Shown: piece after piece, positions 16,504 to 16,632 of the stretch
Numbering within the stretch: the first letter of the stretch is position 1
How the letters are laid out: every line of letters starts with the position of its first letter
Virus record (IMG/VR): IMGVR_UViG_3300047323_000678
Reading direction: 5' to 3' (one strand)
DNA: 21,551 bases
Source: a virus
Lineage: Duplodnaviria; Heunggongvirae; Uroviricota; Caudoviricetes
Translations under genes and position numbers: made by a program
Notes under the pieces: model-generated
Databases searched by the model: none
Told to the model about the DNA's origin: nothing
What the model saw: the letters and a program-made list of their open reading frames with translations, nothing else

Positions 16504-16532
16504 TTTACATTTTTTATTTTTAATAGTATTAT
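16504..16532 (+). promoter_or_regulatory. sigma70 promoter of the SRP RNA
   Basis: TTTACA-17bp-TATTAT. The predicted start near 16539 coincides with the 5' end of the RNA stem. Confidence 0.65.
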
Positions 16533-16538
16533 TGTTTT

Positions 16539-16632
16539 TGATGTGCCCCCTACTTATAGGAAATAAGAACCTGGTCAGGTGTGGAAGCAAGCAGCCATTA
16601 TTATGGAATTAGAGCTAGGATCAGGCACATCA
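16539..16632 (+). ncRNA. ffs: small bacterial-type SRP RNA (4.5S-like)
   Basis: ACCT-GGT-CAGG-TGT-GGAA-GCA-AGCA-GCC-A domain IV (16569-16597), 9-bp closing stem TGATGTGCC/GGCACATCA, CCTA/TAGG distal helix. Confidence 0.9.

Follow-up and report, generated by a model that had tools for sequence, protein, structure and literature searches.

The DNA examined here is a 21,551-nt stretch filed as IMG/VR virus record IMGVR_UViG_3300047323_000678 (the window, in what follows; 28% GC, 84% coding, 31 open reading frames, or ORFs). At 16540-16634 on the plus strand it carries a genuine bacterial small signal recognition particle (SRP) RNA gene of the 4.5S type. The original prediction, made from the sequence alone, was that of an SRP RNA encoded by a phage. 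The SRP RNA gene is real and of the bacterial small type, but the phage location is not supported as stated, the window being part of a replicon of 2,230,803 bp. Our preferred reading, which we hold tentatively, is that the RNA is the resident ffs gene of an uncultivated, AT-rich bacterial replicon of ~2.2 Mb that stably carries phage-type genes, and that it is not the cargo of a conventional phage. The gene and its parts are as follows.

16540..16634, plus strand: SRP (4.5S-type) RNA gene, ~93-95 nt, a single long hairpin, matching the full RF00169 model
16504..16532, plus strand: sigma-70-type promoter-like site, TTTACA-17 nt-TATTAT, 10 of 12 matches
16573..16596, plus strand: domain IV core, GGUCAGG / 3-bp stem UGU-GCA / GGAA tetraloop / AGCAGCC
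16612..16621, plus strand: GAGCTAGGAT, the segment aligned to Escherichia coli ffs 83-92, with 7 of 10 bases identical in the register of the original prediction

An SRP RNA gene of the bacterial small type

RF00169, the Rfam model for bacterial small SRP RNA (Bacteria_small_SRP; curated gathering score 40), matches 16540-16634 (+) at 44.0 bits in cmscan (E 1.1e-6), covering model positions 1-97 of 97. A covariance-model search was the check proposed along with the original prediction, and its outcome is a significant match over the full model. No second gathering-level Rfam match was found in the window by cmscan, including a repeat with laxer filters, and ARAGORN detected no transfer RNA (tRNA) or transfer-messenger RNA (tmRNA) there. 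The degenerate domain IV motif, for which base composition predicts ~8e-9 chance occurrences in the window, occurs once. The intergenic gap that holds the gene (15963-16815, 853 nt) contains no ORF of more than 43 codons, no further RNA family and no notable repeat. On re-check, the coordinates given earlier for domain IV, the inverted repeat, the promoter boxes and the distal segment were all correct. Judging from its sequence, the SRP RNA gene is apparently maintained and is predicted to be expressed.

Structure of the RNA

The reference for structural comparison was the ffs record of E. coli K-12 (L084:949-1062), which scores 68.1 bits on RF00169. The window RNA resembles E. coli 4.5S RNA in being a single long hairpin with the CAGG/AGCA loop, the GGAA tetraloop, an ACC(A/U) 5' asymmetric loop and a segment like ffs 83-92 at about the same distance from the tetraloop. 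It differs in its length (95 nt vs 114 nt, without the extra terminal helix), its score (44 vs 68.1 bits), the change of C87 to U, its AT-rich and shifted middle helices, and its position among phage-type genes. It had been described as shortened (~94 nt); however, it is not short for its family, in which the other 24 RF00169 matches examined span 94-99 nt over the same model, and it merely lacks the E. coli terminal helix. The E. coli sequence and numbering that the original prediction used are right, because in the K-12 ffs record domain IV lies at ffs 43-66 and GUGCCGGGAU at ffs 83-92.

All of the conserved domain IV residues are intact, namely the symmetric loop (5' CAGG, 3' AGCA) and the GNRA-type GGAA tetraloop, so that the invariance claimed for these elements is borne out against the actual E. 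coli record. The covariation claimed for the 3-bp stem is found in part: the middle pair has changed on both sides, from C-G to G-C, but the loop-closing pair has changed on one side only, from C-G to U-G, and the first pair, U-A, has not changed. On its 5' side the asymmetric loop has AACCU at 16568-16572, compared with ACCA at ffs 39-42, and the ACCA to ACCU change described earlier is indeed there. In the modelled structure, the U of this loop could pair with A16597, which would narrow the loop.

The hairpin is closed by the inverted repeat TGATGTGCC (16539-16547) / GGCACATCA (16624-16632), which provides a stem of 8 bp (16540-16547/16624-16631), or 9 bp if T16539-A16632 is included, all pairs being perfect. 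The helices between this stem and domain IV are AT-rich and pair in a shifted register relative to E. coli. In the cmscan alignment, 10 of the 33 consensus pairs are non-standard, compared with 6 in E. coli, and a slightly shifted register gives 26-28 standard pairs. When folded as a single hairpin with domain IV fixed, i.e. the SRP-type fold, the RNA has 26 pairs and -24.0 kcal/mol, 2.5 above the free minimum free energy (MFE) of -26.5, and the z-score of the free MFE against shuffled sequences is just -1.34. Twelve comparators of 0.38-0.49 GC had 23-30 pairs and energies of -26.2 to -28.8 kcal/mol.

The distal segment lies 26 nt from the tetraloop, compared with 27 nt in E. coli. It keeps the equivalents of G83 and C86, and the equivalent of C87 is U; the cmscan alignment places it one base off the register used in the original prediction. 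The claim of a distal segment at nearly equal spacing, with the G83 and C86 equivalents kept, agrees with the E. coli record on the spacing and on these two bases. The original prediction labelled the ffs 83-92 region the FtsY-activation site; in E. coli G83, C86 and C87 are important for GTPase activation, and the segment in the window is a candidate for this role.

Promoter-like site and proposed mode of action

The promoter-like site consists of TTTACA at 16504-16509 and TATTAT at 16527-16532, spaced 17 nt apart; a further 7 nt separate the -10 box from G16540. The window has 7 such sites vs 6.1 +/- 2.7 expected in shuffles, which is no excess. Because promoter-like sites are equally frequent in shuffled sequence, it is position alone that speaks for this one. 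Of the proposal that the RNA has its own promoter, the boxes, the spacing and the placement before the stem therefore stand, but the number of sites is no higher than chance. No terminator-like site was found for the RNA. A 19-nt AT-rich stretch over the -10 region (16517-16535) recurs at 84% identity at 16721-16739, upstream of the aas gene, where a second promoter-like site is predicted.

If the layout of the gene is taken at face value, transcription would run from the TTTACA-17-TATTAT site with a start at about G16540, and the 3' end would be trimmed back to the stem. The transcript would fold into one long hairpin. Its domain IV would be the binding site for the Ffh M domain, while the distal segment may contribute, as it does in E. 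coli, to activation of the Ffh-FtsY GTPases. If the RNA is a resident ffs, the genes for its partners Ffh and FtsY would be expected at another place on this replicon; whose Ffh is the partner, the replicon's or a host's, depends on whether the replicon is a cell or an element.

Comparison with other SRP RNAs

The UGU/GCA variant of the domain IV stem is not special, because the identical domain IV 24-mer occurs in 12 other loci (6 in GTDB genomes of unrelated phyla and 6 on metagenome contigs). At the gathering level, 10 of these loci match RF00169, one matches large bacterial SRP RNA, and one, L074, which ends at the motif itself, has no match. The likeness of the 12 loci to the window is limited to ~30 nt, and overall the identity between the window RNA and 11 other SRP RNAs is 51-67%. 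A tblastn search with all window proteins against the loci retrieved to that point matched PTH2, the peptidyl-tRNA hydrolase encoded upstream of the RNA, and nothing else. The assembly of one Neisseriaceae metagenome-assembled genome has two SRP RNA genes, scoring 60.9 bits each, on contigs of 28,452 bp (L072) and 444,041 bp (L077); the gene may be duplicated there, or the second copy may stem from assembly or binning.

The exact 24-mer is absent from IMG/VR, and no DNA match to the window was found among GenBank phages. A scan of IMG/VR for the domain IV motif gave 61 loci, 15 of which were scanned with Rfam; 13 of these have RF00169. In 8 of the 13 a streptococcal csRNA adjoins the SRP RNA, and these loci are therefore host flank. 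One IMG/VR locus, L015, was considered as an SRP RNA and rejected as a chance motif match in coding DNA. The E. coli ffs was found in one record labelled as phage only, which is 9 kb long and carries no annotation.

One IMG/VR contig of 46,309 bp has, at L036:3990-4033, a 44-nt hairpin that corresponds to SRP domain IV alone and lies between two tRNA genes, within an array of at least 12 tRNAs and a tmRNA. Its score does not reach the RF00169 threshold, and it was caught just as a partial Archaea_SRP match (37.8 bits). SRP-derived RNAs therefore do occur in phage-like DNA. This mini hairpin shares its domain IV motif with the window RNA, but it is only the tip, without the lower helices, whereas the window has the whole 4.5S-type hairpin and a promoter-like site.

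Genes around the SRP RNA

The genes of the window that bear on the identity of the replicon are listed below. Family matches were accepted at E <= 0.01 for Pfam and at E <= 0.001 for PHROGs and NCBIfam.

1636..2316, plus strand: NinI-like serine/threonine phosphatase (phrog_246 4.1e-59; Metallophos 5.8e-13)
13086-13493, plus strand: small acidic protein ending in ...DWHASTC, with no PHROG match; start of the two-gene block 13086..14462
13509-14462, plus strand: DUF7277/DUF7275 enzyme-like protein (phrog_2141 4.2e-91), forming a phage-type block with the small acidic ORF
14763..15512, minus strand: free-standing homing endonuclease with HNH and NUMOD3 (phrog_655 6.5e-46; NUMOD3 9.4e-15)
15546..15962, plus strand: PTH2-type peptidyl-tRNA hydrolase, the upstream neighbor of the RNA (Pfam PF01981 3.4e-29; phrog_1866)
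16816..18945, plus strand: Aas-type bifunctional acyl-ACP--phospholipid O-acyltransferase / acyl-ACP synthetase, the downstream neighbor (Pfam, NCBIfam)
19545..20324, plus strand: ankyrin-repeat protein (Pfam Ank_2 2.4e-16), a singleton at 90% clustering
20394..21551, minus strand: short-form seryl-tRNA synthetase (SerRS), 385 aa, complete (family matches; own copy on the 2,230,803-bp contig)

Among the 31 window ORFs, neither a virion gene (terminase, portal, major capsid) nor an integrase was recognizable. PTH2 looks virus-type: its nearest Atlas cluster by structure consists of 100% viruses, viruses, most commonly Uroviricota, make up 43-63% of the three Atlas clusters closest to it by features, and relatives were found on 10 IMG/VR contigs, the longest of 351 kb, with tRNA arrays alongside in 3 cases. 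The pth2 start is ATG 15546, and TTG 15501 is also open; the 138-aa form that begins with the ATG is on record in the Atlas and in the protein collection. The HNH-NUMOD3 gene abuts pth2, and its start overlaps the TTG frame of pth2, not ATG 15546. The DUF7275 protein matches 688 GenBank phage records, the best at 45% identity, and no plasmid relative of it was found. Two small ORFs without a family, at 1367-1633 (+) and 3801-4016 (-), are paralogues (28% over 72 residues, E 1.4e-8).

The translation signals of the window are bacterial. A Shine-Dalgarno 4-mer is present at -17 to -4 in 17 of 30 ORFs, compared with 73 of the 895 ATGs overall (8.2%; p 1e-11). The mimivirus-type AAAATTGA motif has just 3 + 2 occurrences, with no enrichment. 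A giant virus of eukaryotes was rejected as the source of the window, since its ORFs carry Shine-Dalgarno sites and AAAATTGA is not enriched.

The replicon and its relatives

A single contig of 2,230,803 bp is on record for the window's own SerRS, its DUF7275 protein and eight more of its proteins, and sister replicons measure 2,217,227, 2,222,371 and 2,224,172 bp. The largest phage genome in the available part of 10.1101/2025.01.14.633092 is that of phage BF3, with 841,704 bp and 55% GC; BF3 is unrelated to the window replicon, with its 28% GC, which at ~2.2 Mb is 2.6x the size of that phage maximum. The phage context in which the original prediction placed the RNA is therefore only partly right: the label of phage lacks proof, and in the form given it is contradicted by replicon size.

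Relatives of individual window proteins also lead to large contigs. In the Aas cluster the closest representative is 97% identical, and the members are on contigs of 2,224,172, 2,217,227 and 843,187 bp; that the last of these is close in size to the BF3 genome is coincidental. Members of the 88% SerRS cluster were placed on 2,224,172 bp (one protein shared by 96 contigs) and 565,132 bp, those of the 85% DUF7275 cluster on 2,222,371, 2,224,172, 2,217,227 and 565,132 bp. More distant relatives are on contigs of 1,358,036, 1,334,199 and 598,106 bp. Across the four assemblies the replicon sizes are near-equal, yet the SerRS and DUF7275 proteins of the window's replicon differ by 12-15% from those of the other three. 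Searches of IMG/VR with Aas, PTH2, an alignment of the SerRS clade and DUF7275 turned up no lineage member, even though the SerRS clade is present on JGI contigs as long as 181 kb. Depth matching of the reads of run X1 on a 16S reference gave merely collapsed unitigs of ~150 nt, with depths of up to thousands.

The genes on either side of the RNA have graded series of relatives, from 88 to 48% identity for SerRS, from 84 to 57% for Aas, and from 85 to 70% for DUF7275, followed in the last case by a gap to <=55%. Certain contig sizes recur in these series: 125,850 bp appears for both SerRS (82%) and DUF7275 (82%), 598,106 bp appears for SerRS (63%) and DUF7275 (75%), and the sizes 75,848, 32,317 and 18,908 bp are common to the Aas cluster at 84% and the DUF7275 cluster at 77%. 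Because both of these clusters recur on the 18,908-bp size, the DUF7275 and Aas genes are no more than 19 kb apart in the relatives. The phage-type genes are not a recent prophage or insertion; throughout the lineage they are found together with SerRS and Aas and have diverged in step with them. We infer that the RNA is retained between DUF7275 and aas in the relatives; the reads of run X2, from one relative, barely cover it.

In the SerRS search, 87 matches precede the first organism-named relative (Aquifex, 45%), and 85 of the 87 are at 48-88% identity. This clade is made up of short proteins (~375-400 aa), and the majority lack PF02403, the N-terminal arm domain.

Resident gene of a cellular replicon, or cargo of phage-lineage DNA?

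The reading as a resident ffs gene of a cellular replicon starts from a real RNA, with its covariance-model match, intact domain IV and closing stem of 8-9 bp, and from a bacterial-type replicon, with its translation signals, its size of 2.23 Mb and the stable co-inheritance of the neighboring genes in the lineage. Other evidence weighs against it, and much of this suits the main alternative, which we hold to be nearly as probable, namely that the SRP RNA is cargo of phage-lineage DNA, either a free giant replicon of ~2.2 Mb or a large prophage-like region in a 2.2-Mb chromosome. As cargo, the RNA would pair with a cellular Ffh, would supplement or replace the host 4.5S RNA, and would travel with PTH2, SerRS and Aas. 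The original prediction further suggested that it could redirect Ffh/FtsY membrane targeting or resist host RNases, roles that are speculative.

The first group of these contrary points concerns the gene content of the window. Four to five of the neighbors are of phage type (the phrog_2141, phrog_655, phrog_246 and phrog_1866 families), among them the NinI-like phosphatase, the DUF7277/7275 block, the HNH-NUMOD3 endonuclease and the virus-type PTH2. The DUF7275 protein was found in none of 320 cellular genomes (301 Pseudomonadota, 5 other, 14 control), compared with 5 of 5 phage records in the positive control for that search, and PTH2 was found in 2 of the 301 sampled Pseudomonadota genomes. 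No match in Pfam, PHROGs or NCBIfam was obtained for 18 of the 31 ORFs, only 8 of the 31 pass Pfam's own cut-offs, the gene density (1.44 ORFs/kb) is phage-like, and there are many strand switches. Genes for ribosomal RNA, ribosomal proteins, ffh and ftsY are absent from the window, as it covers no more than ~1% of the replicon.

The second group concerns the lineage. Throughout it the phage-type genes accompany SerRS and Aas and diverge with them; DUF7275 is conserved in every sister replicon and, in relatives of ~80% identity, is never more than 19 kb from aas. The size of the sister replicons is constant within 0.6%, and their genes have diverged unevenly, Aas being 97% identical, PTH2 at least 90%, SerRS 88% and DUF7275 85%; all 6 of 6 ORFans and the ankyrin-repeat protein fall below 90% between sister replicons. 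SerRS has no more than 47% identity to any organism-named SerRS among the matches listed. The clade is also depleted among NCBI-derived genomes, which supply 1 of the 87 SerRS clade matches vs 10 of 33 in the outgroup (counted by eye; Fisher p 7e-6); for Aas the corresponding hand counts, likewise Fisher-tested, are 0 of 26 vs 19 of 94. Along with these come two features of the RNA that sit uneasily with an ordinary resident gene. Its 44.0 bits are the lowest among the 25 RF00169 matches examined, the other 24 scoring 52.4-77.8, and it is a mild folding outlier, because the SRP-type fold is the free MFE in 16 of 16 comparators and not in the window RNA. The domain IV hairpin inside the tmRNA/tRNA array of the L036 contig is a further point in favor of cargo.

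Huge phages commonly carry tRNA arrays, tmRNA and translation-related genes, and the window is like them in encoding a small RNA of translation or protein targeting near PTH2 and aminoacyl-tRNA synthetase genes. On the IMG/VR contigs compared here, tmRNA and tRNA arrays accompany L036 and L064, and PTH2 is present in L063, L064 and L071. The window differs, however, in having no tRNA or tmRNA and in belonging to a replicon of 2.2 Mb, and no SRP RNA of the RF00169 family was found when 10 large phage records from IMG/VR with PTH2 or SerRS were searched. Also against cargo are the size of the replicon, 2.6x that of the largest phage genome in the part of 10.1101/2025.01.14.633092 that was available; the lack of a virion gene and of an integrase or att repeat in the window; and the failure to find the lineage in IMG/VR. 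Moreover, the pairing of the RNA is as good as that of low-GC cellular SRP RNAs and fits an essential resident gene equally well.

A more specific proposal is that the replicon is a member of an undescribed clade of free megabase-scale (0.6-2.2 Mb) phage-like replicons of bacteria with their own SRP RNA, which we consider rather unlikely. If so, the SRP RNA beside PTH2, the short SerRS and the lipid-recycling Aas would be part of a membrane-protein targeting machinery, a suggestion that is doubtful to the same degree.

It is improbable that the gene is decaying or no longer functional, or that the hairpin is SRP-like but serves some other role. The bottom rank of its RF00169 score, its excess of non-standard consensus pairs over E. 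coli, the disagreement of its free MFE with the SRP-type fold at a low z-score and the missing terminator could be read in that way. On the other hand, the domain IV loop residues and the GGAA tetraloop are all intact, the 8-9 pairs of the closing stem are perfect, the alternative register restores 26-28 standard pairs, the folding energy is within the range of low-GC cellular SRP RNAs, and the promoter-like site is correctly placed.

The weakest explanation, that the window spans a prophage-host junction and the RNA is a host ffs used as the attachment site of the adjoining element, is largely refuted and very improbable. Prophages and islands are reported to integrate at ffs (PMC12540744), and the window is alike in having ffs directly beside phage-type DNA; many of the listed IMG/VR motif matches are, in addition, at or near contig ends. 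One 18,403-bp IMG/VR contig has the pattern of an ffs-integrated element, with a full ffs (L005:2701-2797, 77.8 bits) and a duplicated 3' part (L046:4001-4024) ~14 kb apart. The window, in contrast, has no integrase, the 3' part of its RNA is not repeated in the surrounding 1.2 kb, and its phage-type genes lie 5' of the RNA, whereas such elements insert 3'. Furthermore, the sister replicons that share DUF7275 and PTH2 upstream also share Aas and SerRS downstream, the upstream phage-type genes being conserved with the downstream ones, and more distant relatives have DUF7275 and Aas together on contigs of 18.9 and 32.3 kb.

Implications

If the replicon is a cell, as we tentatively prefer, its SRP RNA is an ordinary ffs gene, and the case shows that a phage-like neighborhood can mislead a reader. 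If instead the replicon, or the block around the RNA, belongs to a phage lineage, this would be a complete SRP RNA on mobile DNA. The listings and opening lines of abstracts returned by our literature search contain no description of a phage-encoded full SRP RNA, and the search found no megabase phage-like element. On the phage-lineage alternative, the translation cargo of large phages (tRNAs, tmRNA, synthetases) would extend to co-translational membrane targeting. The lineage is notable either way, with closed replicons of ~2.22 Mb and 28% GC, a conserved gene family that is otherwise phage-only in this survey, a short SerRS with no organism-named relative above 47%, and a near absence from NCBI-derived genomes.

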